Positions 2,685 to 34,171 of a stretch of 64,000 bases of DNA are shown here, one piece after another. The notes beneath the pieces are model-generated. The model had not been told where the DNA came from, ran no database searches, and saw nothing but the letters and a program-made list of their open reading frames with translations. Position numbers and translations under genes: made by a program. The stretch's first letter is position 1. The number at the start of each line of letters is the position of its first letter. This DNA comes from Candidatus Spongiisociaceae bacterium (GTDB taxonomy: Bacteria; Actinomycetota; Acidimicrobiia; Spongiisociales; Spongiisociaceae): assembly GCA_965262915.1 (NCBI GenBank), contig OZ253564.1:768001-832000 (forward strand), read 5' to 3'.

Positions 2685-4373
2685 ATGAGACGGTTGGCGC
2701 TACTGGTCGCATGGGTGCTGGTGCTCGGAACAGTCGCGTCGGGAGCGTTACCGTCCACGCCACCCGCGGTGGCGCAGGAGACAACCGGGCCGCCGGAAAT
2801 ATGCGACACAGCCGCGGTGGAACAATTCACCGACGTCGCCGACGGTGAATACGCGTCCGCCTACGTGCTGTGCATGCGCTCTCTGGGCCTCTCGGTGGGA
2901 AGAGGAGCAGGAACCTACGGTCCTGACAGCCAACTCAACCGCGGGCAGATGGCATCATTTCTGGTGCGGCTGTGGCGTGACGTGCTGGGCAACCAATGTC
3001 CCACCGGAGTAGTCACGCCGTTCACCGACGTGCTCGACGACTCCACGCATACCAAGAACATCGAATGCATCTACGGACTGGAGATCACCACCGGCACCGG
3101 CCCCGACACCTACGGCCCCAGGGACCCGCTGAAGGCAACCCAGATCTCCCGATTCCTGTACCGCGTCTACAACAAAGCCGGCGGCGACATGTGCCCGAGC
3201 GCAGACGGGTCGGAACTCCACCGGGCCGCAGAGTGCCTGCTCCAACTCCGGGTCGTGCCCACCACCGGCGAAGCCACCGCCACCACCACCGTCACCCGAG
3301 CACAAATGGCCGTCTACATGGTAGGGCTATGGCACAACCTCTCAGGCAAAGGCCTACCACCCCCACCCCCACCCCTAGGCACCCCCACACCTGAGGCGAC
3401 CACCACCACTACTACCCAACCCACCCACACCGCACCCACCACCCAACGCATCGCCTACACGGTCAACAGATCCACAGCACTTGATCGCGTGCGGGGAGTC
3501 ACGACCACTGACGTCTGGGTTATGAACGCCGACGGAACCGACCAGAAACAACTCACCGACAACGGCTGGGGTCCGGTGTGGTCACCTGACGGAACCCGAA
3601 TCGCCTACACCGGCAGGCGCCTGACGGGCTCCAGAATCAGACCAAACCAGATCAATGAGGTCTGGGTTATGAACGCGGACGGAACCGACCAGAAACAACT
3701 CACCGACAACGGCTGGGGTCCGGTGTGGTCACCTGACGGAACCCGAATCGCCTACACAGTCGGACTCCGCGGAATCTTACGCGGAGTCCGGGTTATGAAC
3801 GCGGACGGAACCGACCAGAAACAACTCACCGACAACGGCATGAGTCCGGTGTGGTCACCTGACGGAACCCGAATCGCCTACGTAGCCCTCGGCCCGGACA
3901 CCGGAGTCCCGACCACTGAGGTCTGGGTTATGGACGCCGACGGAACCGACCAGAAACAACTCACCATCGGCGAGATCTCGGGGTCGTTTCTTCTGTCGTG
4001 GTCGCCTGATGGAACCCGAATCGCCTACCCAGGGGCAAACGGAGTCTGGGTCATGAACGCGGACGGAACCGACCAGAAACAACTCACCGACAACGGCTGG
4101 CGTCCGGTGTGGTCACCTGATGGAACCCGAATCGCCTACTCTAGGGCAAACGGAGTCTGGGTTATGAACGCGGACGGAACCGACCAGAAACAACTCACCG
4201 ACATCGGCCAGAGTCCGGTGTGGTCACCTGACTCTGGCCGAATCGCCTACTCTGGGAGCGGAGTCTGGGTCATGAACGCGGACGGAACCGACCGGAAACT
4301 GCTCTACTACAACCGCACCGCCGGGGATGGCGCGGGTCCGGTGTGGTCGCCCGTGGTCGTGCCGGAGGGTTAA
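2685..4373 (+). CDS. Secreted S-layer-homology protein with a TolB/PD40 beta-propeller
   Basis: Signal peptide, SLH-like motifs (FTDV...RGQMASFLVR, TRAQMAVY), Pro/Thr linker, seven VWVMNADGTDQKQLT...VWSP repeats. Confidence 0.85.
   Translation: MRRLALLVAWVLVLGTVASGALPSTPPAVAQETTGPPEICDTAAVEQFTDVADGEYASAYVLCMRSLGLSVGRGAGTYGPDSQLNRGQMASFLVRLWRDVLGNQCPTGVVTPFTDVLDDSTHTKNIECIYGLEITTGTGPDTYGPRDPLKATQISRFLYRVYNKAGGDMCPSADGSELHRAAECLLQLRVVPTTGEATATTTVTRAQMAVYMVGLWHNLSGKGLPPPPPPLGTPTPEATTTTTTQPTHTAPTTQRIAYTVNRSTALDRVRGVTTTDVWVMNADGTDQKQLTDNGWGPVWSPDGTRIAYTGRRLTGSRIRPNQINEVWVMNADGTDQKQLTDNGWGPVWSPDGTRIAYTVGLRGILRGVRVMNADGTDQKQLTDNGMSPVWSPDGTRIAYVALGPDTGVPTTEVWVMDADGTDQKQLTIGEISGSFLLSWSPDGTRIAYPGANGVWVMNADGTDQKQLTDNGWRPVWSPDGTRIAYSRANGVWVMNADGTDQKQLTDIGQSPVWSPDSGRIAYSGSGVWVMNADGTDRKLLYYNRTAGDGAGPVWSPVVVPEG
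3513..4352 (+). repeat. Seven near-identical coding repeats (PD40 blades)
   Basis: Recurring gtctgggttatgaacgcggacggaaccgaccagaaacaactcacc...ccggtgtggtcacctga, separated by variable-length inserts. Confidence 0.92.
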
Positions 4374-14626: not shown

Positions 14627-16059
14627 GGCTCTTCGGAAATGAGTGGGGAGTAGGGGATCTGCCAGGGGGAGTTGGAATCCACCAGAAGTGAGGAGGGGTC
14701 CTCCATAATCGGGTGTTGGTAATGACATCCGAGGCAGGAGGACCCCTGTGGAAGCTGATCCTACGCGCATGTGCGAGAAGTTGGTAGGCCTAGGTGAGGT
14801 TGATCTGGTAGGGATCAACGACCCGGGCGAGGAGGCACCGTTGGAGGTGGTGATCCGGTCCCGCAAGCCCCGGCCGTTGTGTGAGTCCTGTGGCGGGTCG
14901 GTGTGGTCGAAGGGCTATCGGACGGTTGTGTTGGTGGATTTACCGGCGTTCGGCCGGCCTGTGCGGCTGCGGTGGCGGAAACGGCGCTGGACATGTCCGA
15001 ACCCCGACTGTGCGCTCAGATCGTTCATCGAACAAGACCCCAAGATTGGTCCCCAACGGGCGTTGTTGACATCCCGAGCGGCCCGGTGGGTGACCATCCA
15101 GGTGGGTGGGCGGGGCCGTTCGGTCGACGAGGTCGCCGCAGAACTTGGTTGTGATTGGCATACGGTGAACAAAGAGGTTGGCCGCTGGGGCGAAGCGCTG
15201 CTGGAAGCAGACACCGATCGGGTCGGGACCGTCGAAGCTGTGGGAGTGGACGAGACGTTGTTCTGGCGTCGGGGCCGTTGGCGTACCAAAGTCTGGTGCA
15301 CCTCTGTCGTCGACGTTGGCGGCCACCAGCTGATCGACATAGTCCCTGGTAGAACAGCAGAAAGCGCCGCAGCCTGGTTCCGGTCACAACCCACCGAATG
15401 GTGTGAGGCTATCCGCTGGGCGGTGTTGGACATGTCCGGTTCGTATCGGAAGGCGTATGACAGGGTGCTGCCGCACGCGCTGCAGGTAGCGGACCCGTTC
15501 CACGTCATCCGCCTCGCCAACCAGCGTCTCGACGAGGTACGACGAAGAGTCCAAAACGAAACCCTCGGGCATCGAGGCCGCAAGGATGACCCGCTGTATC
15601 GGATACGGCGGCTCCTAACCGCTGCGCATGAGAGGATCAGCGACCGGGGTCAAATACGGCTGCGTGGTCTCCTCGATGCTGGTGACCCCTACGGGGAAGT
15701 GCGCACAGCCTGGCACGCGAAAGAGACGGTACGAGGCATCTACGGGATCGAGAGTCCGGTCCTTGCTCTCCGATACACCCTCCAGCTCGCAGACGACCTC
15801 CAACACGAATCCTGCCCACCCGAGATCAACAAGCTGGGTCGTACCATCGCCCGCTGGACCCCCCAGATCACCAACTGGCACATCTCGAAGGTAACCAACG
15901 GACCCACCGAAGCCCTCAACAACCTCATCAAACGGATCAAACGAGCAGCGTTCGGGTTCCGCAACTTCGCGAACTACCGAATCCGCGCCCTTCTCTACGC
16001 GGGGAAACCCAACTGGGACCTACTCCCATCGGTCACTCCCCACTGAAATCCGATGAGCC
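14627..16059 (+). mobile_element. ISL3-family insertion sequence, copy 1 (intact)
   Basis: TIRs GGCTCTTCGGAAATGAGTGGGGAGT / ACTCCCCACTGAAATCCGATGAGCC; 8-bp TSD GTATTGGC at 14619-14626 and 16060-16067. Confidence 0.96.
14748..16046 (+). CDS. ISL3 transposase
   Basis: Zn finger CESC...CPNPDC, GVDE, LDMS..Y, VADPFHV, TNGPTEALNNLIKRIKRAAFGFRNF. Confidence 0.96.
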   Translation: MEADPTRMCEKLVGLGEVDLVGINDPGEEAPLEVVIRSRKPRPLCESCGGSVWSKGYRTVVLVDLPAFGRPVRLRWRKRRWTCPNPDCALRSFIEQDPKIGPQRALLTSRAARWVTIQVGGRGRSVDEVAAELGCDWHTVNKEVGRWGEALLEADTDRVGTVEAVGVDETLFWRRGRWRTKVWCTSVVDVGGHQLIDIVPGRTAESAAAWFRSQPTEWCEAIRWAVLDMSGSYRKAYDRVLPHALQVADPFHVIRLANQRLDEVRRRVQNETLGHRGRKDDPLYRIRRLLTAAHERISDRGQIRLRGLLDAGDPYGEVRTAWHAKETVRGIYGIESPVLALRYTLQLADDLQHESCPPEINKLGRTIARWTPQITNWHISKVTNGPTEALNNLIKRIKRAAFGFRNFANYRIRALLYAGKPNWDLLPSVTPH

Positions 16060-20444: not shown

Positions 20445-21362
20445 ATGCTGATGGAAGGGATCATCACACCGGTGGTCACCCCGTTCCACGCCGACGGGAG
20501 CATCGACCGGTCCGCCTTCGGCGAGATGCTCGAACACCTCATCAGCGCCGGGGTTCACAGCGTCATCGTCGGGGGCAGCACCGGCGAGTTCTACGCCCAG
20601 ACCCTCGCCGAGCGGGTCGAGATGATGGAGTTCGGGGTCGACGTGGTCCGCCGGCGGATACCCGTGATGGCGGGGGTGTCGGCCAGCCACACCGCGGACT
20701 GCATCACGCTGGCCACCGCGGCCCGTGACCTGGGCCTGGACGGTCTCCTCCTGGGTTCCCCCCCCTATGCGGCGCCCACCGAGAAGGAGAACGCCCTCCA
20801 CGCCCTGCGGATCGACCGGGCGGCCGGTCTCCCGATCATGCTCTACAACTACCCCCACCGGACCGGCTCGGACATGGGCCCCGAATACCTGAGCCGGGTG
20901 AGCCGCTCGCCCCGGTTCCGGGCGATCAAGGAGAGTTCGGGTGACATAGACCGGCTCCACCTGCTGGCACGGGAGTATCCGCATCTCACCATCGCCTGCG
21001 GGGCCGACGACCAAGCACTCGAGTTCTTCGTATGGGGGGCCCGATCGTGGGTGTGCGCCGGGTCCAACTTCCTGGCCGCCGAACACATCGCCCTGTACGA
21101 GGCGTGCGCCGTGAAGGGTGACTTCGAGCTGGGACGGCGGATCATGAAGGCCATGCTCCCGCTGATGACCACTCTCGAGAGAGGCGGCAAGTTCGTCCAA
21201 GGAGTCAAGTTCGGTGCCCGGCTGGCAGGTTTGCCTGCGGGCGTTCCCCGGCAACCTCTCCGCTCCCTGACCAAGGAGGAGAAGCGGGAGTTGGAACGGG
21301 TCATCCGCACGATGAAGACGGCCGTGCGCAGTGCGGTCGAGGGGGGATCGGCTCATGCTTGA
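20445..21362 (+). CDS. Dihydrodipicolinate synthase/N-acetylneuraminate lyase family aldolase
   Basis: VTPF, GGSTGE, LYNYP.RTG, IKESSGD. Confidence 0.9.
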   Translation: MLMEGIITPVVTPFHADGSIDRSAFGEMLEHLISAGVHSVIVGGSTGEFYAQTLAERVEMMEFGVDVVRRRIPVMAGVSASHTADCITLATAARDLGLDGLLLGSPPYAAPTEKENALHALRIDRAAGLPIMLYNYPHRTGSDMGPEYLSRVSRSPRFRAIKESSGDIDRLHLLAREYPHLTIACGADDQALEFFVWGARSWVCAGSNFLAAEHIALYEACAVKGDFELGRRIMKAMLPLMTTLERGGKFVQGVKFGARLAGLPAGVPRQPLRSLTKEEKRELERVIRTMKTAVRSAVEGGSAHA

Positions 21363-22872
21363 CCTGCTGACCAGAGACGAGTACGCGGCGCTGTCGTCGG
21401 CGATCATCCTGCCCGCCAACTCGTTCATCAACGGCAAGTTCCGCCCCGCCCTCTCGGGCGCGACGTTCATATCCACCAACCCGGCGACCGGAGAACCCCT
21501 TGCCGAGGTCGCCGCCTGCGGGGCCGAGGACGTGGACCTGGCGGTCCGCAAGGCGCGCCAGGCCTTCGACGACGGCCGGTGGGCCAAGTTGGCGCCGGCA
21601 GATCGCAAAGAGGTCTTGATCCGGCTGTGCAAGCTGATGACCCGCAACCGGCGGGAACTCGCCGTTATGGAGAGCATCGAGTCGGGCAAACCGATCCGGG
21701 ACTGCGACTCGATAGACGTGCCGGAGGCCATCGACACCATCAAGTGGCATGCCGAGCTCATCGACAAGGTCTACGACAAGTCGGCGCCGGTCGGCGACGA
21801 CGCCATGGCGCTCATCGTGCGGGAGCCGGTCGGAGTGGTGGGTGCGGTCCTTCCGTGGAACTTCCCGCTGCTCATCGCCGCCTGGAAGATCGGCCCGGCC
21901 CTCGCCGCCGGGAACTCCGTCGTCCTGAAACCCTCCAAGCAGACGTCGCTCACCGCCCTGCGCCTGGCCGAGCTGGCCATGGAGGCCGGACTGCCGGACG
22001 GTGTCCTCAACGTGGTCACCGGCACGGGACCGGGGGTCGGGGAGCCGCTGGGGAGACACATGGACGTGGACATGGTCACCTTCACGGGATCGACCGAGAC
22101 CGGCCGGCAGTTCCTCCGTTACTCCGCGGACTCCAACCTCAAGAAGGTCACCCTGGAGTGCGGCGGCAAGAACCCGTTCGTGGTGCTCGAAGGAGCGGAG
22201 GATCTGGACATGGTGGCCGAGCACTTCGTGACCGGCGCCTTCTGGAACATGGGCGAGAACTGCTCGGCCTCGTCCCGGCTGATCGTCCACCAGGCCGTGC
22301 GGGACGAACTGCTCGACCGGGTCCTGGCCCGGGCGGCGGACTGGAGGACCGGGGACCCGCTCGATCCGGTCAACCAGCTCGGTCCGCTGGTCGACGAGCC
22401 GCACCACACCAAGGTGTGTTCCTACCTCCGCGCAGGGGCTGACGAGGGGTCCGGAGTGCTCCTGGGAGGCAGGTCGTTGGGTGGCCTGTACGTCGAGCCG
22501 ACCATCTTCGACGTGAACGACACCGACTCAGTCCTCATCACCGAAGAGATCTTCGGTCCGGTGGCAGCGGTGACCACGGTCACCAGCAACGAGGCAGCTA
22601 TCGGGATGGCCAACAACACTCCCTACGGCTTGGCGGCCTCGGTGTTCTCGGGGAACATGCGTGAGGCTCTGCGCGGGGCACGTGCCATCCGCGCCGGCAC
22701 GGTCACCGTCAACTGTTACGGCGAGGGGGACATTTCCACTCCGTTCGGCGGCTACAAGCAGTCCGGGTTCGGGGGACGCGACAACTCCGTCTACGCCCAC
22801 GAGCAATACACCGAGCTCAAGACCATCTGGATCGATCTCAGCGACCGCTCCTTGGAGGAGTCCATCGACTGA
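21355..22872 (+). CDS. Aldehyde dehydrogenase (PuuC-like)
   Basis: PWNFP, FTGST, LECGGK, catalytic Cys in GENCSA, EEIFGP, PFGGYKQSG. Confidence 0.93.
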   Translation: MLDLLTRDEYAALSSAIILPANSFINGKFRPALSGATFISTNPATGEPLAEVAACGAEDVDLAVRKARQAFDDGRWAKLAPADRKEVLIRLCKLMTRNRRELAVMESIESGKPIRDCDSIDVPEAIDTIKWHAELIDKVYDKSAPVGDDAMALIVREPVGVVGAVLPWNFPLLIAAWKIGPALAAGNSVVLKPSKQTSLTALRLAELAMEAGLPDGVLNVVTGTGPGVGEPLGRHMDVDMVTFTGSTETGRQFLRYSADSNLKKVTLECGGKNPFVVLEGAEDLDMVAEHFVTGAFWNMGENCSASSRLIVHQAVRDELLDRVLARAADWRTGDPLDPVNQLGPLVDEPHHTKVCSYLRAGADEGSGVLLGGRSLGGLYVEPTIFDVNDTDSVLITEEIFGPVAAVTTVTSNEAAIGMANNTPYGLAASVFSGNMREALRGARAIRAGTVTVNCYGEGDISTPFGGYKQSGFGGRDNSVYAHEQYTELKTIWIDLSDRSLEESID

Positions 22873-23052
22873 CTCGCACGTTGGTGCTGGCCGCGGCGTC
22901 CTCACCGCGTGGAGAAGCCCCCGGGTAGGGGATGATGCGGAACAAGGAGTTCGGGCTTGTGACCCTCCTCGATCCTGGAGGCGGTGACCACACCACTACC
23001 TGGGCTGGGCGGCGAGCGGTGAGGAATCGAGCGCGGCGATGGCATTCGTCGG

Positions 23053-23793
23053 TCAGGGTCGATCATCGAGGAGTCGCGGAAGGTTTCTGGTCTCGTGTTC
23101 CAGCCAGGCCGCGGCGGCCGGGGATATGAATGACACCAGCTCGGTTGCTTCGCTGTATATCTGCTCCAAGGTTTTGGCGACTTCGGGCATACCTCGGAGC
23201 GTACATCTGAGGGGACCGATGATGGGTTCGCAGTGGGAGATGCGATTCCGAAGGAGGTGCAGGTAGGCGAGCCGGTGTTCAACAGCTCGGCGACGGTCCC
23301 CGAAGTCACGGCCGGGCGCGGTGAAAGCGTTGTCAAGTGCAGGAACCCAGAGGCTCTGCTCGTAGCGGGCACTCGCCAGATAGCGCCAGAATCCAAAGTT
23401 GAGAGCCGCGATGACCTTTCCGGGATCCGGACGGTACGACGTGTGCTCGGCACGCCCTATCGCACTTCTGATCTTTACTCGATCCGCCTTGTTGAACCAG
23501 TGATGCCTCACCCAACTCGGCTCGTCGAACCAAGCTTTACCGGGAGGACGACCGCTGACCTGAGCATGGTGGGCGGTCAACCGACGGTGCATGGCGTTCC
23601 GAACCAGTACCTCGACATGTTGGATCAGTTCCGCGAAGGACCCAGACACGGGCGCATTCCATGCGTAGAGGGCAACGGCCGCCGCAGGATCGGTTGTCGC
23701 CTGGCGAATGGATGCGAAACGTTGCACCGACACCAAGCCTTCGAGTTCGTCTGCGGTGAAGACGGATGCCGGGTCGGGTCGCGTTGTCGTCAC
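23053..23793 (-). CDS. Abi_2 (AbiD/AbiF-like) HEPN-domain protein
   Basis: ALYAWN...EVLVRNAMH, LNFGFWRYL, HEPN RxxxxH motif in LRNRISHCEP; GTG start at 23793. Confidence 0.85.
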   Translation of the reverse strand: MTTTRPDPASVFTADELEGLVSVQRFASIRQATTDPAAAVALYAWNAPVSGSFAELIQHVEVLVRNAMHRRLTAHHAQVSGRPPGKAWFDEPSWVRHHWFNKADRVKIRSAIGRAEHTSYRPDPGKVIAALNFGFWRYLASARYEQSLWVPALDNAFTAPGRDFGDRRRAVEHRLAYLHLLRNRISHCEPIIGPLRCTLRGMPEVAKTLEQIYSEATELVSFISPAAAAWLEHETRNLPRLLDDRP

Positions 23794-23821
23794 CTTGGCT
23801 ATCCGGGATCGTCGTCGTCGG

Positions 23822-24024
23822 CCCCGGTCTGGTGACTTCGGCCACCCCCGGGTTGAGTTCGTGCCGCGGGTCTGCCGGGCGTCGAGCAACGAGCATTGGT
23901 GCGGGTAGGGTCGTCGCCTGTCGGGAGTCTGTTATCCTATTGTCGAAGACCCCGGTCTGGTGGCTCCGGCCACCCCCGGGGTTAAGTTCGTGCCGGGGGT
24001 CTGCCGGGAGTTGAGCAGCGAGCA
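23822..24024 (-). ncRNA. Two ~75-nt structured direct repeats with a 54-nt spacer upstream of the Abi gene (candidate RNA antitoxin)
   Basis: 23822-23895 and 23950-24024 differ by 7 substitutions and 1 indel; hairpin GGUGGC-CG(G/A)A-G(C/U)CACC is kept in both. The repeats are certain; RNA function is inferred. Confidence 0.6.
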
Positions 24025-24083
24025 GCGTTATGGGCCCCGGGGCAACTCTCGCGGCAACCGGCCGACCACTTGCCACCGGCGTG

Positions 24084-24418
24084 TCAGAAGATGGTTGCGG
24101 CGGTGTCGACGATGTTGTAGTCGTCGTCGGTGATGAGCACGACCCGCCACTTGTCGAGGGTGGTGCAGGGATGCGATATCCCGACCCGGGCCGGGGTTCC
24201 CACGGGGAGGTCGGCGGCATTATCGGGCCGTACGAAGGCGTGCTGGTCGTTCAATTCGACGATGGGGAACGGTCCACCTCCGCCTGTGGGGAGAGGGTCG
24301 ATGACTGACGGTGAGCCCTCGTCGAAGCCGATGTCCCGGCGCCCGACGTTGAGCAGGGCCAGGTTGGGCACTCCGATGTCGATCAGGAACCGGAGACCGG
24401 TCGGCTCCACGCCCGTGG
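24084..24418 (-). pseudogene. Internally deleted remnant of a paralogue of the PLP aldolase/deaminase at 32861-34171
   Basis: TGVEPTGLRFLIDIGVPN fused directly to LALLNVGRRDIGFDEG...IVDTAATIF*. Confidence 0.88.
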
Positions 24419-24421
24419 CGG

Positions 24422-24810
24422 CCCTGTATCTGGAGCCGACGATCTTCGAAGTGGCCGGCCCCGACTCGGTCCTCATGTGGGAGGAGATCTTCGGCTCGGT
24501 GGCGGCGGTGACCACGGTGAGCAGCAATGAGACCGCTATCAGGGTGGCCAACAACACACTGTACGGTCTCGCGGCTTCGGTGTTCTCGGGGAACATGCGG
24601 GAGGCCCTGCGCGGGGCGCGGGCCATTCGTGCTGGCACCGTGACCGTCAACTGTTACGGCGAGGGAGACATCTTCACTCCGTTCGGCGGCTACAAGCAGT
24701 CCGGGTTCGGGGGCCGGGACAATTCTGTCTACGTCCACGAGCAGTACACCGAACTCAAGACGATCTGGATCGACCTCAGCGACCGGGTATTGGAAGAGTC
24801 GATCGACTGA
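24422..24810 (+). pseudogene. Diverged duplicate of the 3' end of the aldehyde dehydrogenase
   Basis: LYLEPTIFEV...EEIFGS...KTIWIDLSDRVLEESID* matches about 22485-22872; catalytic N-terminal part missing. Confidence 0.9.
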
Positions 24811-24992: not shown

Positions 24993-25167
24993 AGATCGTC
25001 AACATCTCAGGCAACCCGATCTGCAAGACATACCATCCGGGGCGCTTCACGTCCTTGTATTGCCAGGGCTTGGCTACTGTGTTGTTAACCTCAGGGAGGG
25101 CTTCAGTGTCTTGGTGTGTCTGCGCCTTGGGCATTGTCACGAAACGAGGAAACGAGAGCGGGGCGCG

Positions 25168-28100
25168 ATGGCTTGGAGATCTCTACCAGCGCAACGAACG
25201 GCGCGGTGCCGCGGAGGCCGAGGCCGCCGGGCCGGGAGGAAACTGACGACGATCGTGACCGTAGCCGCGATGGTGATGTCGCTGGCTACGCCGGTGGCTG
25301 CACAGAATGATCCTCCGGCGCGGCCCACCGGGTTGAGGTTGTCCGCGCCGTCGCACGAGTTGGTACGGCTTACCTGGCGCAATCCGAGGGATTCGTCGAT
25401 CACGGGCTACAAGATCCTGCGCCGTCTTGCCGATTACACAACCTCTTTCGGGGAGATAGATACCGTTACAGGAAGCAGCGTGACTTCCTATGAGGACATG
25501 AGCGTTGCGGCCGGCGTCACCTACTACTACTCGATCAAGGCCGTCAACAGTGCGGGAGACAGTGAGGAGTCGGACGGTATGTTCGACCTCTACATCCGCG
25601 TGCCGGCGGAGCCGATCAACGACTCGCCTGTGGTGACCGGCAGCATCGCACTGACCTACACGGAGAACGGCACCAAGACGGTAGCCCGTTACCGCGCCAG
25701 GGATCCCGATAGTAACCAATTCACATGGGACCTAGAAGGGGAGGATGAGGATGATTTCAGCATCACCGACGGTGTGTTGGCGTTCCGCTCGCCGCCGGAC
25801 TTCGAGAACCCCACGGACAGGGGTGCCGACAGCGAGGACAATGACTATGAGGTAACGGTACGTGCTGACGACAGCCTTAACGTAGGCGAGTTGCACGTGG
25901 TCGTGTCTGTGATTGGTGTGGACGAGCCACCGACGTTTACGGCCGGGGATACCGAGGTTTCTTACACCGAGGACCGAACAGGCATTGTGCAGACCTACCT
26001 TGCCATGGATCCGGAGGGTGAAGAGATTTCCTGGTCGCTGTCCGGTACTGATCGGGGTGATTTCACTATCACCGGCGGCGTGTTGAACTTCGTGGCTCCA
26101 CCTGATTTCGACGCGCCGACAGATAGCAATAGGAACAATGAATATGTAGTGACCGTGGTGGCTTCAGATGGAGCCAAGACTTCTACTCGCAGCGTGACTG
26201 TGACCGTAGAAGATGTCGACGAGCCGGGTACGGTCACGTTGTCGTCACCGCAACCGATGGTTGATATCGACTTGACCGCGACTCTGAGTGACCCTGATGG
26301 GCGCATCACCAATATTGAATGGCGGTGGGAATTGCAAGAGGGCGGTTCGGGTCCGTGGGTACTTATCAGCAGCGCGAACTCGGATCGCTTCCGTCCCCGC
26401 GCGAGCGACGAGGATGACCGGCTACAGGTCGAAGTCCGCTACCACGACAGGCGCGGAGCCAAGTCTTTGACGAGTGATCCGACTCTGGTCGTGCAGTCTT
26501 TCCGTTTAGATAACCTGCCACCGGTCTTTGCTTCTCAGTCGTTCACACGTGCGGTGGCTGAAAACACTTCCTCGGGTCAGAACGTCGGTGATACGGTGGT
26601 AGCCACCGACGAGGATGTGTCCTCATTGGTATACAGCCTCAGTGGCGCGGACGCCGCAGCGTTCACTATCGACTCGTCGTCCGGTCAGATCAGGACGAGC
26701 GCTCCGCTCGACTACGAAACCAAGAAGACCTACCGCGTCAACGTGGTCGCCACCGACTCGTCCAGAGCGTCGCAGTCTGTGGCGGTGACCATCAATGTCG
26801 AGGATGTGGAAGAGCCCCTTTCGGCCGTCACCGGTGACACCCCGGTCGAATACGCCGAGGACCGCACCGACGCGGTGGCCACCTACACCGCTACTGACCC
26901 CGACGGCACTGCTGTTACTTGGAGTCTCTCAGGTGTCGATGCCGGTAGGTTCGATATCAGCAACCGCGGCGTGTTGAGTTTCGCGATACGGCCTGACTTC
27001 GATGACCCGGCTGACCAGGGTAGGAACAATACCTACGACGTGACTGTCGAGGCATCCTCAGGGAGTGATGATAGCTCCTTGCCTGTGATGGTGATGGTCA
27101 CCGATATAGACGAGCCGTTGGTGCTCACCGGTGATGGCTCGGTCCGATTTGCCGAGAACAGGAGCAGCAGCGACACGGTGCATACCTATGAGGCCGACGA
27201 TCCTGAGGGAGAGACCGTCGTGTGGACTCTGGAAGGCGCCGACCGTGAACTCTTCACCATTACTACGGGCGGTGAGTTGATGTTCGAAGCATCGCCGGAC
27301 CATGAGAACCCGACCGACCGCGGCAGGAATGGCTCCTATGACGTGACAGTGGTGGCTTCTGACAGGAGACATACCGCGGAGCGAGATGTAACCGTTACCG
27401 TCACCAACGTAGACGAGCCCGCCACGCTGACGCTCAGCTCGCAGCAGCCGCAAGCCGGCACCGCGCTCACCGCCAGACTGACCGACCCCGACGCCCGCAT
27501 CAGGATCAGCAGTTGGCGATGGCACAAGTCACCGAACGGGACAGACCCTTGGCTCGATGCCACAGGAAGAGGGGCGCGGTCGGCCCAGTACACCCCGGGC
27601 GAAGGCGACGCTCCACCAGACGGTGATGAGGGCCTCTACCTGCGGGTGAGTGTCACCTATACAGACGCGTTCGGGGCAAAGGCCCTCGAGTTGATCACGA
27701 CCCGGACGGTACGCGCCGAGCCACTCACGAACAGCCCGCCGGTGCTCTCATCGACGGACGGGAGGCGCTCGATCCCGGAGAACACATCCCCGGGCGAAGA
27801 CATAGGCGCGGCCTTCAGCGCTACCGACACCGACAGTGGCGACACCTCCCTGAGCTACAGCCTCGCTGGTACTGACGCCGGCTCGTTCGACCTTGACGCT
27901 TCGACGGGTCAACTCTCAACCAGAGCTGCGCTCGACCATGAGGCCAAGAGCAGTTACGAGGTCACGGTGAGGGTGACCGACCCGTCTAATGCCTCCGACG
28001 ACGTACCGGTCACCATCACCGTCGAGAACGTGGAAGAGGACGGAACTGTCACACTTTCGGGTGTGCCACCCGAGGTCGGTACTCGGCTGACCGCCACGCT

Positions 28101-29028
28101 GACCGATCCCGACGGCGATATCTTCGATCTCGCCTGGCAATGGCAGCGGTCCACCAGTCGCGACGGCGGCTGGAGCGACATCTTCGCCGCGACCTCACAG
28201 ACCTACACACCGACCGGCGCCCACACCGATTACGACACCGATTACTACCTGCGGGCCGTGGCCAGATACAAAGACGGATTCTCCCCCAACGACTCAGATG
28301 AGGCCAATGGCGCCACTCTCGAGATAGTGGAAAGGGTGCAGCAACAGCAGCGTGACACCAGCACCGGCACCGGCACTGACACCGACGACCGCAGGCCGAC
28401 CAGCAGCGGCACCAGCAGCGGGACTAGCAGCGGCAGCGGTACCAGCGGAACACAGAGGCCCGATCCTGAGCCTGAGCCCGACGACGACAAGGCCTTCTCG
28501 GACATTGACGACACCTCATCGCTTCACCGAGCGTTGCGGACGCTGTCTGCCGAGGACGTGCTGGACGGTACGGGCTGTGGTCGTGGTCGTCTATGTCCCG
28601 AAGATCATCTGTCGCGCTGGGAGATGGCGGTGTGGCTGATACGTGTCGTAGACGACGGTGCCGACCCTCGTGCGACACGCAGGTCACGGTTTGCCGATGT
28701 GGACGCCGATGAATGGTGGTCGCCCCATGTTGAGCGTCTTGCTGACCTTGGGATCACCGAGGGTTGCAAGGCCGAACCCCTGAGCTACTGTCCTGATCAG
28801 CCCGTCACCCGTGCCCAGATGGCCAGTTTCCTCGTCCGGGCTTTCAAACTCCCCAGGGCCGGGTCCGCAGGATTCGAGGACACCGCCGGAAACGTCCACG
28901 CCCGGAACATAGATGCGATTTACGCGGCGGAAATCACTATCGGCTGCGCCTCCATCCCGCTGATGTACTGCCCCGGCCGGTACACCACCCGAGCCCAAAT
29001 GGCAAGGTTCCTCCTCCGGGGTCGCTGA
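25168..29028 (+). CDS. Large surface protein: FN3, multiple cadherin-like/Ig repeats and C-terminal SLH
   Basis: Signal peptide, FN3 (PARPTGL..LTW..YYYSIKAVN), repeated A.DP.G..WSLSG.D...F.I, PDFE.P.D and LDYE motifs, SLH TRAQMA. Confidence 0.9.
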   Translation: MAWRSLPAQRTARCRGGRGRRAGRKLTTIVTVAAMVMSLATPVAAQNDPPARPTGLRLSAPSHELVRLTWRNPRDSSITGYKILRRLADYTTSFGEIDTVTGSSVTSYEDMSVAAGVTYYYSIKAVNSAGDSEESDGMFDLYIRVPAEPINDSPVVTGSIALTYTENGTKTVARYRARDPDSNQFTWDLEGEDEDDFSITDGVLAFRSPPDFENPTDRGADSEDNDYEVTVRADDSLNVGELHVVVSVIGVDEPPTFTAGDTEVSYTEDRTGIVQTYLAMDPEGEEISWSLSGTDRGDFTITGGVLNFVAPPDFDAPTDSNRNNEYVVTVVASDGAKTSTRSVTVTVEDVDEPGTVTLSSPQPMVDIDLTATLSDPDGRITNIEWRWELQEGGSGPWVLISSANSDRFRPRASDEDDRLQVEVRYHDRRGAKSLTSDPTLVVQSFRLDNLPPVFASQSFTRAVAENTSSGQNVGDTVVATDEDVSSLVYSLSGADAAAFTIDSSSGQIRTSAPLDYETKKTYRVNVVATDSSRASQSVAVTINVEDVEEPLSAVTGDTPVEYAEDRTDAVATYTATDPDGTAVTWSLSGVDAGRFDISNRGVLSFAIRPDFDDPADQGRNNTYDVTVEASSGSDDSSLPVMVMVTDIDEPLVLTGDGSVRFAENRSSSDTVHTYEADDPEGETVVWTLEGADRELFTITTGGELMFEASPDHENPTDRGRNGSYDVTVVASDRRHTAERDVTVTVTNVDEPATLTLSSQQPQAGTALTARLTDPDARIRISSWRWHKSPNGTDPWLDATGRGARSAQYTPGEGDAPPDGDEGLYLRVSVTYTDAFGAKALELITTRTVRAEPLTNSPPVLSSTDGRRSIPENTSPGEDIGAAFSATDTDSGDTSLSYSLAGTDAGSFDLDASTGQLSTRAALDHEAKSSYEVTVRVTDPSNASDDVPVTITVENVEEDGTVTLSGVPPEVGTRLTATLTDPDGDIFDLAWQWQRSTSRDGGWSDIFAATSQTYTPTGAHTDYDTDYYLRAVARYKDGFSPNDSDEANGATLEIVERVQQQQRDTSTGTGTDTDDRRPTSSGTSSGTSSGSGTSGTQRPDPEPEPDDDKAFSDIDDTSSLHRALRTLSAEDVLDGTGCGRGRLCPEDHLSRWEMAVWLIRVVDDGADPRATRRSRFADVDADEWWSPHVERLADLGITEGCKAEPLSYCPDQPVTRAQMASFLVRAFKLPRAGSAGFEDTAGNVHARNIDAIYAAEITIGCASIPLMYCPGRYTTRAQMARFLLRGR

Positions 29029-29608: not shown

Positions 29609-30358
29609 TTATGGGACGATGGGCTGGAAGGCAGGGCTGGAAAGCGGCTGGTAGTTATCTGGCCACGGGGCGGTCAGACGGCAGAGGAGGCGCATACTCG
29701 GAGCCACGCCAGGGGGGTTGACGTGTTCGGCGGTGATGGAGATAATGTCCTCGCCGATGCGATCGCGGAGGCCGTGGACCGTCTCGACCAGGTAATCCGG
29801 TACCCAACCCACAGGAGCGTAATCCGGGGTGGCGATGAGGATGGCTTGAGGATTCACCTCATTGTGGGGGTCGTCCACGAGGATCAGGCGATCGCCGGAC
29901 TGCAACGCCGTGACAGCTTCTGAAGCGCCCTCGCGGTGGCGGATCCCGCGGACGAAGAACAAAGTGGTGAGGTTGGCGTCTTCGGTGCGGATTGGTGGGG
30001 CGAACACCTCGATGCGGTCGGTCACCTTCCGGCCGTCGTTGCGGGCCATCACCTCGAAGGGGTCGCTATCGATGTCTAGGCCAAGTTTCTTAACATACTG
30101 ACCGTAGTCCGGGCGGCGGCGCGGCATTTGGCGGTTACGAAAGACGGGAAACAGTTTCTCGCTCTCATAGACCCGGTGAAGATCAGGCAGGCCCGGCAAA
30201 CGCGGGAAGCCCTGAAGGGATTTGGAGGCCTTCAGATAGACGAACCGGTAGGACTCCGAGCCGTTCAACACAGTTTGGGTGAGCAGGCCTACAGGGCGGA
30301 TCCGGCCCTCGGGGTGGCGCCAGGTGACATACAGGTTGGATTCGGCGCGCTCGGTCAT
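29609..30358 (-). CDS. HIRAN-domain protein, partner of the HipA-like kinase
   Basis: LYVTWRHP...PVGLL, LFPVFRNR.MP.RRPD, C-terminal FFVRGIRH...NEVNPQAI...VGWVP. Confidence 0.82.
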   Translation of the reverse strand: MTERAESNLYVTWRHPEGRIRPVGLLTQTVLNGSESYRFVYLKASKSLQGFPRLPGLPDLHRVYESEKLFPVFRNRQMPRRRPDYGQYVKKLGLDIDSDPFEVMARNDGRKVTDRIEVFAPPIRTEDANLTTLFFVRGIRHREGASEAVTALQSGDRLILVDDPHNEVNPQAILIATPDYAPVGWVPDYLVETVHGLRDRIGEDIISITAEHVNPPGVAPSMRLLCRLTAPWPDNYQPLSSPAFQPIVP

Positions 30359-30840
30359 CCGTTTCTCCACCACGAAAAAAGGGGCCTCCTTCAGCCTAGC
30401 GAGGGTTGGAACTGGGTCAGTCGCGCCCAGTTGCGACGCATAACCCGCTCGGCGAAGGCCTCGGGTGGGTAGTTGCGATCTTTGGACGACATCTGTTCTA
30501 GCCTTTGTGGGTCGCTTAACAGGAACCCGAGACTCGAGGCATGATCGAAGGTAGGGGCCAGATAGCGGCCGGACTCAGACACGATAACGGCCCAGTTCTC
30601 CTCATGGCGGTCAGTGTTGCCGATGAGGGCGTCCAGTACAAGATACCCGACGAACACTTCCCAAGCCGATAAACCGTCCAAAGCGCTTGCAGGAGCCTGA
30701 TAGTCTTCCAGCGCCCGATGGATGGCCTCAACCGTATATGAACTTCGGTCGCTGACAGTTACGTAGTCGCCTTGTTCGGCAAGCAACGCATTCCCGTGAA
30801 CCAAGTCCTCGGTCGCGTTGAGTACAGAACGACATATCGT

Positions 30841-32275
30841 GGCTCTTCGGAAATGAGTGGGGAGTAGGGGATCTGCCAGGGGGAGTTGGAATCCACCAGA
30901 AGTGATGGGGGGTCCTCCATAATCGGGTGTTGGTAACGACATCCGAGGCAGGAGGACCCCTGTGGAAGCTGATCCTACGCGCATGTGCGAGTTGTTGGTA
31001 GGCCTAGGTGAGGTTGATCTGGTGGGGATCAACGACTCGGGCGAGGGTGCACCGCTTGGGGTGGTGATCGGGTCCCGCAAGCCCCGCCCGTTGTGTGTGG
31101 CATGTGGCGGCCCGGTGTGGTCCAAGGGTCACAGAACGGTTGTGTTGGTGGATTTACCGGCGTTCGGCCGTCCGGTTCGGCTGCGGTGGCGGAAACGCCG
31201 CTGGACGTGCCCGAACACCGACTGTGAGATCAGATCGTTCATCGAACAAGACCCCACGATTGGTCCCCAACGGGCGTTGTTGACATCCCGAGCGGCCCGG
31301 TGGGTGACCATCCAGGTCGGTCGGCGGGGCCGTCCGATCCAAGAGGTCGCCGCAGAGTTGGGTTGTGATTGGCATACGGTGAACAAAGAGGTTGGCCGCT
31401 GGGGCGAAGCGCTGCTGGGGGCCGACACCGATCGGATAGGCGAGGTCGGGGCTGTGGGCATCGACAAGAAGCGTTGTTCTGGCGGAAAGGCCGGTGGCGC
31501 ACCAAGGTTTGGTGCACCTCTGTCGTCGACGTTGGCGGCCACCAGCTGATCGACATAGTCGGTGGTAGAACAGCTGAAAGCGCCGCAGCCTGGTTCCGGT
31601 CACAACCCACCGAATGGTGTGAGGCTATCCGCTGGGCGGTGTTGGACATGTCCGGTCCTTACCGGAAGGCGTATAACCGGGTGTTACCGCACGCTCTCCA
31701 GGTAGCAGACCCCTTCCACGTCATACGCCTCGCCAACCAGCGACTCGACGAAGTACGACGAAGAGTCCAAAACGAAACCCTCGGGCATCGAGGCCGCAAG
31801 GATGACCCGCTGTATCGGATACGGCGGCTCCTAACCGCCGCGCATGAGAGGATCAGCGACCGGGGTCAAACACGCCTGCGTGGTCTCCTCGATGCTGGTG
31901 ACCCCTACGGGGAGGTACGCACAGCCTGGCACGCGAAGGAAACGGTACGAGGCATCTACGGGATCGAGAGTCCCGCCCTCGCTCTCCGATACACCCTCCA
32001 GCTCGCAGACGACCTCCAACACGAATCCTGCCCACCCGAGATCAACAAGCTAGGTCGCACCATCGCCCGCTGGACCCCCCAGATCACCAACTGGCACATC
32101 TCGAAGGTAACCAACGGACCCACCGAAGCCCTCAACAACCTCATCAAACGCATCAAACGAGCAGCGTTCGGGTTTCGCAACTTCGCGAACTACCGAATCC
32201 GCGCCCTTCTCTACGCCGGGAAACCCAACTGGGACCTCCTCGCCACCGTCACTCCCCACTGAAATCCGAAGAGCC
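30841..32275 (+). mobile_element. ISL3-family insertion sequence, copy 2
   Basis: Same TIRs as copy 1; 8-bp TSD CATATCGT at 30833-30840 and 32276-32283. Confidence 0.96.
30962..32262 (+). pseudogene. ISL3 transposase with a +2 frameshift near 31465
   Basis: gacaagaagcgttg here versus gacgagacgttg in copy 1, breaking the GVDE motif; element is 1435 bp versus 1433 bp. Confidence 0.85.
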
Positions 32276-32860: not shown

Positions 32861-34171
32861 TCAGAATATGGTCGTTGCGGTGTCGACGATGTTGTAGTCG
32901 TCGTCGTCGACGACGAGCAGGACCCGCCACTTGTCGAGGGTGGTGCAGGGATGCGATATGCCCACCCGGACCGGTGTCCCCACGGGGAGGTCGGCAGGGT
33001 TGTCCGGCCGTACAAAGGCATGCTGGTCGTTCAGCTCGACGATGGGGAACGGTCCGTCCCCGCCCCTGGGGAGGGGGTCGATGACCGAAGGCAAGCCTTC
33101 ATCGAAGCCGATGTCCCGGCGCCCGACATTGAGCAGGGCAAGGTCGATCTGAGGTCTCGATACGACGGTGGCGCCCACCTCCAGCGCCCCCTGGAAGGGG
33201 GTGTAGGCCCAGCCGGGCTGGATGCTGGGCCCCATCGCGGCATAGTGACCGTGATCGTGAACCAGGTAGCAGCCGGACCGCAGGACCAGCCGGTAGGAGT
33301 CGATAGAGGCGAGTTCGTGCCTGATGTATTCGCTGACGATCTCGAAGATCTCCGAGCCCCCGATGGTCAGCACGGGCGGCTCGGTGGTGTCGAAGACCCC
33401 ATTGCGGTGGAAGTCCCGAAAGATGCCTGTGACCGATTCCAGGTAGGCGTTGACCGAAGCCAGGCTCTCCGGTGAGCGGTCCTCGCCGGCGGGACCTTCG
33501 TACGCTCCTATCCCGCCGACCACCGCGGTGCCGGTCTGCCCGATCTCGCGGGCCACGGCTTCGGCCTCGTCCTGGCTGCGGCAGCCCGTCCGCCCGTTCG
33601 GTACTCCGATGTCGATCAGGAACCGCAGACCGGTCGGCTCCACACCCGTGCTGTCGATGGCCGCGCGGTAGGCCCTCACCACCGCTACCGAGTCGACGAA
33701 GCTGTACACCTCCACGTCGGGCTGTTCCGCCAGACGGACCAGACTCTCCAGTGACCGGGGATCGGCCGCCTCGTTGGCCAGGAGGATCCGGCGTACCCCG
33801 AAGCGGTGGGCGGTGACGGCCTGGTGTGGTAGCGCAACGGTGAGGGCCCAGGTTCCGTGCTCGAACTGGAGCTTCCACAAGGCCGGCGCCATGGTCGTCT
33901 TGCCGTGCGGAGCGAGGAGGACGTTGTTGTCGGAGCAGTAGCGGCCCATCACCTCTGCGTTGTGATGCAGGGCGCTCCGCCGGAGCAGGGCGAACGGGGT
34001 GGGGAGGTCCTGCAGGGCGTTCAAGCCGGTCGCCGCCAGCCCGGCGGGCGTCCAGGACCCGTCACCACGTTCGGGGGGGAGACCTTTCAACCCCGGAGGC
34101 AGGGGAATACCGTCGAGTGATCGGAGAGCCTCCTCCATCACGTCGTAGTCAATTCCGGCTGGGTTTGGCAT
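32861..34171 (-). CDS. Fold-type III PLP enzyme (D-serine dehydratase/D-threonine aldolase-like)
   Basis: LAPHGKTTMAP, GRTGCR, YEG, LRSGCYLVHDHG, LNDQH, ISHPCTTLDKW. Confidence 0.88.
   Translation of the reverse strand: MPNPAGIDYDVMEEALRSLDGIPLPPGLKGLPPERGDGSWTPAGLAATGLNALQDLPTPFALLRRSALHHNAEVMGRYCSDNNVLLAPHGKTTMAPALWKLQFEHGTWALTVALPHQAVTAHRFGVRRILLANEAADPRSLESLVRLAEQPDVEVYSFVDSVAVVRAYRAAIDSTGVEPTGLRFLIDIGVPNGRTGCRSQDEAEAVAREIGQTGTAVVGGIGAYEGPAGEDRSPESLASVNAYLESVTGIFRDFHRNGVFDTTEPPVLTIGGSEIFEIVSEYIRHELASIDSYRLVLRSGCYLVHDHGHYAAMGPSIQPGWAYTPFQGALEVGATVVSRPQIDLALLNVGRRDIGFDEGLPSVIDPLPRGGDGPFPIVELNDQHAFVRPDNPADLPVGTPVRVGISHPCTTLDKWRVLLVVDDDDYNIVDTATTIF

Follow-up and report, generated by a model that had tools for sequence, protein, structure and literature searches.

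A structured RNA motif accompanies a family of AbiF-like HEPN genes and is tandemly duplicated at one locus of Candidatus Spongiisociaceae

The sequence analyzed here, a stretch of 64,000 nt from contig OZ253564.1 of a Candidatus Spongiisociaceae bacterium (hereafter the window, with positions counted from its first letter), carries on its minus strand a gene for an AbiF-like HEPN protein, upstream of which lie two direct repeats, each with a predicted RNA hairpin. The hairpin belongs to a conserved, covarying RNA motif that precedes this gene family in several phyla, and the repeats are a tandem duplication. We conclude that the locus probably encodes an AbiF-type toxin and its RNA antitoxin, i.e., a module of the type III toxin-antitoxin (TA) or abortive-infection kind, in which the repeats arose by local duplication. 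AbiF is reported to be a HEPN ribonuclease (RNase) toxin neutralized by a noncoding RNA (ncRNA) encoded upstream (PMC12373285, PMC12737573, PMC13064643). The original prediction, made from the window alone, had placed an AbiF-like nuclease behind a structured RNA unit and had likened the two repeats and the stretch between them to a minimal array; the former proposal is upheld below, and the latter is not.

A three-helix RNA motif with compensatory changes

The motif was defined without the clade to which the window protein belongs. A seed alignment (A2) of 34 upstream regions, all from more distant relatives, supports a three-helix structure of ∼45 nt on the sense strand, 20 to 40 nt upstream of the start codon. 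It consists of a basal helix P1 (ACCCCGG/CCGGGGU), a variable 4-bp helix P2, a 1-nt junction, and a helix P3 (UGCC/GGCA) closed by a variable loop, with a 3-nt G-R-G bulge, a 1- to 2-nt bulge before the 3′ strand of P1, and a YUUCG-type tail on the 3′ side. The 3′-strand bulges consist of conserved purines and U. In A2, 89.8% of the cells are paired, and 11 of the 15 base pairs have changed on both sides. None of 500 shuffled alignments equaled A2 in pairing, in the count of compensatory pairs, or in covariation score, and sliding the partners by 1 to 3 columns lowered the pairing to 38 to 50%.

A covariance model built from A2 (R1) was used to search the window and 94 loci, where it made 94 matches at E ≤ 1. 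The alignment of 94 rows fitted to R1 (A3) has 91.6% of its cells paired, a figure that leans toward the model. Among the 70 best rows of A3, P2 occurs as more than 10 different paired sequence types, and the G-R-G bulge has G at both outer positions in 67. The 3′ tail, N-U-(U/A)-C-(G/A) at columns 94 to 98, holds U in 69 and C in 65 of these 70 rows; it reads UUUUC in the orthologs of the window gene and GUAC, with no U run, in alphaproteobacterial versions. A UA(C) stands ∼17 nt past the stem (columns ∼110 to 112), just before the ribosome-binding site, and could be a processing site. An outer helix, P0, sought by eye between the A-rich 5′ flank and the 3′ flank, gave some pairs, GAUC/GAUC and GUAC/GUAC in two Rhodococcus loci among the candidates, in an inconsistent register and was dropped.

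R1, with no member of the window's clade in its training set, finds the hairpin of the distal repeat in the window (38.1 bits, E 1.2e-9, versus 5.9 bits on the opposite strand) and the hairpins of the orthologs (25 to 38 bits), so that the test by a covariance model from homologous upstream regions, suggested with the original prediction, came out in its favor. In this clade the motif is simplified: the two upper helices, P2 and P3, have merged into one, GGUGGC/GCCACC, which is flanked by a 1-nt bulge 5′ and by an AGA bulge 3′. The hairpin GGUGGC-CGRA-GYCACC had been correctly recognized in each window copy, as had the confinement of the changes to the loop or to a G-U pair.

Linkage of the motif to the gene family

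An order-level search found relatives of the window protein in 12 of 401 genomes; seven loci (L013 to L019) are of the ortholog type, with 58 to 67% identity, and a second clade, at ∼35 to 45% identity, includes a paralog in the window's own genome (C1:3851966). A profile search of 1.84 billion cluster representatives returned 7,957 matches at E ≤ 0.001, 5,644 at E ≤ 1e-10, and 2,162 at E ≤ 1e-30, the last being clusters at 50% identity. For the linkage analysis, a pattern scan of one genome per species yielded 601 candidate stretches, 544 of them relatives, of which the best 80 were retained. Their hosts are Acidimicrobiia (many of them sponge-associated metagenome-assembled genomes), other Actinomycetota, Alphaproteobacteria, Gammaproteobacteria, Acidobacteriota, and others. 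A sense-strand R1 match of at least 25 bits lies at most 260 nt upstream of the protein match in 66 of these 80 loci, and the score is at least 35 bits in 60. Together with the 11 compensatory pairs, this count substantiates the proposed tie between the gene family and a structured, sense-strand RNA upstream.

The window's own genome gave four R1 matches at E ≤ 1 when 150 of 4,416 first-look candidates were scored. Two of them (67.7 and 38.1 bits) are directly upstream of two paralogous genes, and, among the candidates scored, matches above 35 bits occur only there, not genome-wide and unlinked to Abi genes. The paralog (L012/L109; G000:C1:3851838-3852526, 44% identity) has the full canonical motif, scoring 67.7 bits, in an upstream region that is common to relatives in L025. 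The remaining matches, of 20.0 and 16.1 bits (C1:1952348 and C1:3209262), were treated as false positives. Among 150 other genomes of the phylum, six had R1 matches at E ≤ 1e-3; the two strong ones (64.2 and 37.0 bits) adjoin family genes, and the four at 24 to 31 bits were set aside as false positives. Each of these weak matches, which span 16 to 31 bits over the own genome and the phylum sample, is either a simple CCCCGG hairpin or lies more than 1.5 kb from any family gene. The motif travels with the gene and not with the gene's neighbors. For annotation, R1 sets true sites, above ∼35 bits, apart from ordinary GC-rich hairpins.

Tandem duplication of the leader in the window

A repeat search delimited two direct-repeat blocks, 23814-23895 and 23942-24024, of ∼82 nt and 87 to 88% identity with one indel. 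Their start-to-start spacing is 128/129 nt; 46 nt separate them, and the proximal block ends 20 nt from the GTG start codon. The two direct repeats had thus been rightly predicted upstream of the gene; the predicted gap of 54 nt, a figure that includes a few weakly matching bases, and the predicted distance of 28 nt are both revised. Alignment with five ortholog leaders extends the repeats to two 129-nt units (Table 1), both collinear with the single ortholog leader from the hairpin through a GGAUA box to the start codon and first codons. By this collinearity, most of the "spacer" between the repeats is leader and start region belonging to the distal unit, in decayed form. In the distal unit, a 41-nt insert is followed by the motif and leader and then by what is left of the start-codon region (∼23898-23941); the insert immediately precedes the hairpin on its 5′ side, occurs in both units of the window, and is missing from the orthologs. 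A single motif copy, ∼35 to 40 nt upstream of the ATG, is found in all seven orthologs (7/7), and no second copy of the 231-nt repeat region was found in the 5.06-Mb genome. The repeats are, then, a lineage-specific 129-nt tandem duplication of the leader and first codons.

The two copies have fared differently. The distal core hairpin (23982-23949) has an outer CCCCGG/CCGGGG stem, a 1-nt 5′ bulge, an inner GGUGGC/GCCACC stem, a 3′ AGA bulge, and a UCUUCG tail, and folds in isolation at −25.4 kcal/mol (z −2.9). The proximal hairpin has lost one C of the outer stem (CCCGG/CCGGG), carries one G-U inner pair, and has its pyrimidine tail replaced (CCGACG); it folds at −18.6 kcal/mol (z −0.75), and its R1 score is 7.1 bits (E 0.07 when 401 nt were searched without filters). 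The canonical motif is therefore kept in the distal unit, and the unit adjacent to the open reading frame (ORF) is decaying. An alternative pairing had also been predicted for an AGACCC(C/G)CGG segment in each repeat. Pairing of AGACCCCCGG with the 5′ arm does exist and, in the distal copy, is the minimum-energy fold, but the segment sits in the 41-nt window-specific insert, is absent from the orthologs, and gives a fold no better than shuffled sequences (z −1.46); this candidate was rejected.

Contigs from two other studies cover both copies (X5 record 17, with 12 differences; X10 record 11, with 22 differences). A low-depth contig (X1, depth 4.9) joins position 23817 to 23950, leaving a single hybrid unit, which may reflect recombination between the copies or an error at such depth. 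The duplication may raise the antitoxin dose or provide two motifs per transcript, as in RCd22 of Clostridioides difficile, which reportedly has two motifs and then a terminator (PMC12373285); a neutral duplication is just as possible.

Table 1. Features of the window (upper rows) and of other loci with duplicated motifs (rows headed by a locus name)
Feature	Position	Strand	Basis or remarks
AbiF-like HEPN gene	23053..23793	-	246 aa plus stop, GTG start at 23793; translation
Proximal 129-nt unit of tandem duplication	23769..23897	-	Extends into the first ∼8 codons of the gene; alignment
Distal 129-nt unit of tandem duplication	23898..24026	-	Repeat coordinates; alignment of both units with five ortholog leaders
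Proximal degenerate motif copy	23793..23864	-	Core hairpin 23852-23822; R1 7.1 bits
Distal motif copy	23918..23993	-	R1 38.1 bits, E 1.2e-9; near-identical to the single motif of the orthologs
Aldehyde dehydrogenase gene	21331-22872	+	One flank of the Abi gene
D-serine-dehydratase-like gene fragment	24084..24650	-	188-aa ORF, C-terminal D-ser_dehydrat only (PF14031, E 2.6e-11)
Full-length 436-aa D-ser_dehydrat paralog	32861-34171		8 kb from the fragment
Two ISL3-family transposase genes	14748-16046, 31369-32262
PADLOC PDC-M03 candidate defense pair	29609-30373, 30391-31125	-	Component B, E 9.5e-77; component A, E 1.2e-40
1,322-aa protein with cadherin, fibronectin-III and S-layer-homology domains	25060-29028	+	Divergent from the region upstream of the Abi locus
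L074: two strong motif cores 205 nt apart			Upstream of one gene
L093: 106-nt direct repeat	2409-2514 and 3251-3356		98% identical; motif plus first codons on both sides of the gene
L057: 72-nt direct repeat	2426-2497 and 3232-3303		85% identical; arranged as in L093
L066: three motif copies
L032: second motif			Precedes a second, frameshifted paralog

A divergent AbiF-like HEPN protein

The minus-strand open frame spans 23053-23889; the start of the gene was placed at the GTG at 23793 by alignment with the orthologs, whose MTTP start matches the N terminus of the window protein. As predicted, the HEPN Rx4H motif is intact (RNRISH, residues 182-187). In alignment A1, residues R65, N66, R182, N183, R184, H187, and E189 are invariant; in a second alignment of 77 sequences (A4), invariance extends to E61, R65, W88, F135, W136, W149, R182, N183, R184, H187, and E189, and N66 is conserved in at least 90%. 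The best defense-family profile is PADLOC PD-T4-5 (E 2.6e-9 over residues 19-231, with a low score), and Pfam Abi_2 (PF07751) is matched at E ≤ 0.01 by 70 of the 77 relatives, at best with 1e-8. An NCBIfam scan of the window protein returned no family.

An AlphaFold2 model built on A4 (predicted local distance difference test score 93.8, predicted template modeling score 0.90) placed the protein next to AbiF. In Foldseek, PbAbiF (8VZ6_A) ranked first (E 6.9e-3, probability 1.00), followed by a runner-up at E 0.72, and VIA-align superposed it on 205 of 246 residues with Z 11.5 and a root mean square deviation of 3.7 Å. Z values from VIA can be middling for helical folds; 8VZ6 stands 6 units above the rest (runner-up Z 5.5), and PspCas13b (8WF9) reaches Z 5.2 over 127 residues. 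The window protein is thus a divergent member of the AbiF/Abi_2 HEPN group and falls in a branch of the Abi_2/HEPN family that is large, divergent, and high in GC. Its clade has an insertion of 12 to 14 residues directly after the HEPN motif (window residues ∼192-207, A1 columns 201-212), modeled as a small β hairpin, and the clade with the full three-helix RNA is without it; the insertion in the protein coincides with the simplification of the RNA, though as a single event.

Duplicated and displaced copies at other loci

Two motifs per locus have arisen independently in L074, L057, L066, and L093 (Table 1). At L093, a tRNA gene lies ∼350 nt further on. Directly upstream of the first motif copy of L074 (from Phytoactinopolyspora endophytica) is a near-perfect palindrome of ∼50 nt (L074:2135-2187) that resembles an operator. 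The L066 relative matches PD-T4-5 with E 1.6e-13. Arrangements of the module formed by the motif and first codons include tandem (the window and L074), gene-flanking (L057, L066, and L093), before another gene (L066), and inverted (locus L114 of genome G512). AbiF has been discussed as an ancestor of Cas13, and duplication of its motif has been proposed as a step toward arrays (PMC12373285). In a bolder reading, which we hold to be quite unlikely, the motif would be an uncatalogued, multiphylum class of AbiF antitoxin RNA, the motif and first codons would form a recombination-prone module, and the variants would be snapshots on the way from a hairpin to a multirepeat locus. If so, they would show the step proposed between AbiF and Cas13 arrays, namely a multirepeat locus with unique sequence between the repeats.

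Genomic neighborhood

The D-serine-dehydratase-like fragment ends 58 nt before the distal unit, and read-through transcription from it is possible. With this fragment, its full-length paralog, and the two ISL3-family transposase genes nearby, the region around the Abi locus is a rearranged one. The PDC-M03 pair, whose A gene has an additional weak HipA_C match, is ∼6 kb from the Abi gene, and the two look like a small defense island. Most orthologs lie downstream of a conserved 219-aa ORF with no Pfam family (L031:1760-2419; also L013, L014, and L016 to L018) and near an MmeI-type methyltransferase fragment (L031:4259-5515), a neighborhood that the window gene has lost.

The motif as a candidate antitoxin and its alternatives

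By analogy with PbAbiF/AbiFr and with AbiF/RCd22 of C. difficile, the leader motif would be the cognate antitoxin RNA of this protein branch. The leader would be transcribed with the toxin mRNA or in excess of it; the folded motif would bind the protein, probably with one motif per monomer of a HEPN homodimer; the bulge on its 3′ side would block the RNase site; and the toxin would stay silent until phage infection or loss of the RNA set it free. PbAbiF is reported to be a dimer that binds one ncRNA per monomer, to have its active site blocked by bulged nucleotides, and to cleave and process its own ncRNA (PMC12737573), and RCd22 is reported to lower abiF transcription 17-fold (PMC12373285).

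A number of results weigh against an AbiF-type toxin with an RNA antitoxin. The first concern the RNA. The original prediction had called for a search with the Rfam abiF motif, and the Rfam 15 scan of 22800-24400 gave no match at E ≤ 10, abiF (RF03085) included. Other loci likewise gave no match at the motif, whether 20 of them were scanned at gathering scores or 12 at E ≤ 10, and across the own genome RF03085 made two weak matches elsewhere and none at either paralog locus. In a positive control, RF03085 detected the two motifs that precede the phage phiC2 AbiF gene (37.6 and 19.5 bits), a locus at which R1 has no match, so the two covariance models do not cross-detect. The window RNA and the abiF RNA agree in where they lie, in strand, and in overall build (a basal stem rich in GC, a single unpaired base 5′, and a longer unpaired stretch 3′) and have no detectable homology. 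No paper describing the motif emerged from a literature search, with the limit that the supplements of the 2025 Cell paper on AbiF and Cas13 may list it; within that limit, the kind of system is known and the RNA motif is new to Rfam 15. Within the window, the copy in the normal, ORF-adjacent position is the degenerate one, which is odd if the RNA must act there in cis. A simple scan of 23600-24300 found no sigma-70-type promoter and no intrinsic terminator (a GC-rich stem plus at least 5 U in 8 bases), and no conserved promoter was seen by eye upstream of the motif.

The second group concerns the protein. For the predicted designation as an Abi_2 gene, the Pfam Abi_2 match is marginal (15.4 bits, E 0.024, against a gathering score of 25.6). 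A profile sequence search of PDB chains with the window protein gave none at E ≤ 1, and the hhalign comparison with phiC2 AbiF is weak (probability 6%), the alignment being collinear through the RN..AH motif.

The third group concerns the link between the two. No R1 match was made in 14 of the 80 loci; one of these has just 71 nt of upstream sequence, several carry variant hairpins by eye, and two have weak signals of ∼22 bits. In the phylum sample, three genomes have family genes, and one of the three is without the motif. At L066 (505-1174), the first motif copy (49.1 bits) and the first ∼12 codons (MPTFDHRLIAV versus MSTFDHRVIA) stand before an unrelated ORF of 189 aa that matches neither a Pfam nor a PADLOC family, which looks like a gene swap behind a shared leader. 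At the G512 locus (L114, G512:C44), the motif (1501-1578, plus strand) and the gene (1449-844, minus strand) are inverted or divergently transcribed, with 37 bits opposite the gene's strand and ∼2 bits on it. Given these two loci, the element may have roles beyond that of a dedicated antitoxin.

It is unlikely, without being far-fetched, that the leader acts purely in cis, as an attenuator, a terminator, or an autoregulatory mRNA operator that neutralizes nothing as free RNA; a cis-acting attenuator function in part is possible. The fixed short distance of the motif from the start codon on the sense strand, the pyrimidine tail (UCUUCG or UUUUC) that comes after the GC-rich stem in Actinomycetota, and the 17-fold drop in abiF transcription caused by RCd22 (PMC12373285) would all suit such a leader. 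The GUAC tail of the alphaproteobacterial versions and the empty terminator scan speak against it, and a terminator needs neither conserved bulge nucleotides nor covarying inner helices. Moreover, the inverted motif of G512 and the copies downstream of the gene in L057, L066, and L093 cannot act on the leader of their gene.

The motif might also be a genuine RNA partner that serves as an activator, a sensor, or a substrate (a processing site, or a decoy displaced by phage factors) and not as an inhibitor. This we consider improbable: the cleavage and processing reported for the PbAbiF ncRNA (PMC12737573) and the conserved UA ∼17 nt 3′ of the stem, as a possible cleavage site, would fit it, but both experimentally studied AbiF systems are described as showing neutralization by the RNA (PMC12737573, PMC12373285, PMC13064643).

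An element acting at the DNA level, such as a site for recombination or attachment or the edge of a small, attC-like mobile cassette, with the repeats as its scars, is very improbable. In its favor, the gene stands between direct repeats of the motif and first codons in L093 (next to a tRNA gene), L057, and L066; the L066 leader precedes a different gene; the motif is inverted at one locus; and the window region is rearranged, with ISL3 transposases and a gene fragment. Against this, the motif is specific to one protein family, with orientation and distance fixed in 66 of 80 loci, and no integrase was found beside the window gene among the 14 ORFs scanned, which span 14.7 to 34.2 kb. The strand-specific R1 scores and conserved asymmetric bulges fit a transcribed RNA, although folded single-stranded DNA is also conceivable, and homologous recombination between conserved leaders accounts for the scars without a dedicated site.

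Finally, a minimal CRISPR-like array, in which the repeats would flank a spacer and the RNA would guide or program the HEPN nuclease, is barely credible: it can point to two direct repeats with a hairpin in each and a less similar stretch between them, and to the proposed path from AbiF by duplication toward arrays (PMC12373285), but the "spacer" can be aligned to ortholog sequence, namely to leader and start-codon region, and retains a start-codon relic, all seven orthologs have one unit, the repeats are only 87 to 88% identical with one of them decaying, a search of 50,697 phage and 72,556 plasmid records with the interval 23896-23949 found no match, and no Cas family is present among the 14 neighboring ORFs scanned, as the original prediction had itself noted.

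Comparison with known systems

AbiF systems have been characterized only recently, as HEPN toxins that are neutralized by an upstream RNA and are likely ancestors of Cas13, and the Rfam abiF motif is reported chiefly for Abi_2 proteins from Bacillota and Pseudomonadota (PMC12373285). The present motif is a second one with covariation support, and the branch of the protein family that it goes with is large and is represented in Actinomycetota, Alphaproteobacteria, Acidobacteriota, and other phyla. Should the motif act as proposed, the RNA-antitoxin principle would hold across the family, and matched protein-RNA pairs would be at hand for studying RNA recognition by HEPN nucleases; the locus, for its part, supplies natural examples of motif duplication.

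With Cas13 and its arrays, the window shares a distant resemblance in the HEPN fold (PspCas13b 8WF9, Z 5.2) and a hairpin-forming repeat. Unlike them, it has no variable spacer and no cas genes among the ORFs scanned, its relatives have no array, and its protein has one HEPN domain. PD-T4-5 (PDLC04038), an Abi_2-type defense gene of E. coli that reportedly goes back to Vassallo et al. in 2022, is the best defense-profile match of the window protein; its model has no RNA partner. The likeness to ToxIN, AbiQ, and the classical type III TA systems lies in the proposed logic, that of an RNase toxin held by an RNA encoded directly upstream. Their antitoxins, however, are described as arrays whose near-identical repeats, ∼36 nt long, are cut apart by the toxin (PMC12373285), whereas the family of the window mostly has one structured hairpin per gene and a HEPN fold in place of that of ToxN.

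AbiFCd/RCd22 of C. difficile has two tandem hairpin motifs on the sense strand upstream of the toxin gene (PMC12373285), as does the window, and the RF03085 consensus shares with the window hairpins the GC-rich basal stem, the 1-nt 5′ bulge, and the longer unpaired 3′ stretch. The two differ in that RF03085 matches the phiC2 motifs and not the window, in that the window copies are 129-nt duplicates with leader and start codon, one of them degenerate and the relatives being single-copy, and in that the window has no separate terminator by the simple scan of 23600-24300. The closest counterpart of the window protein is PbAbiF with its RNA AbiFr (8VZ6), which is said to come from Zilberzwige-Tal et al. 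(Cell, 2025). Sequence identity between the two proteins is 16%, with no sequence-level match in the PDB, and the RNAs differ in sequence and helix layout, with no homology detected by covariance models. Yet PbAbiF is the best structural match of the window protein, both have the HEPN Rx4H motif, and in both systems one small gene is immediately preceded, on its own strand, by the sequence of a structured RNA.

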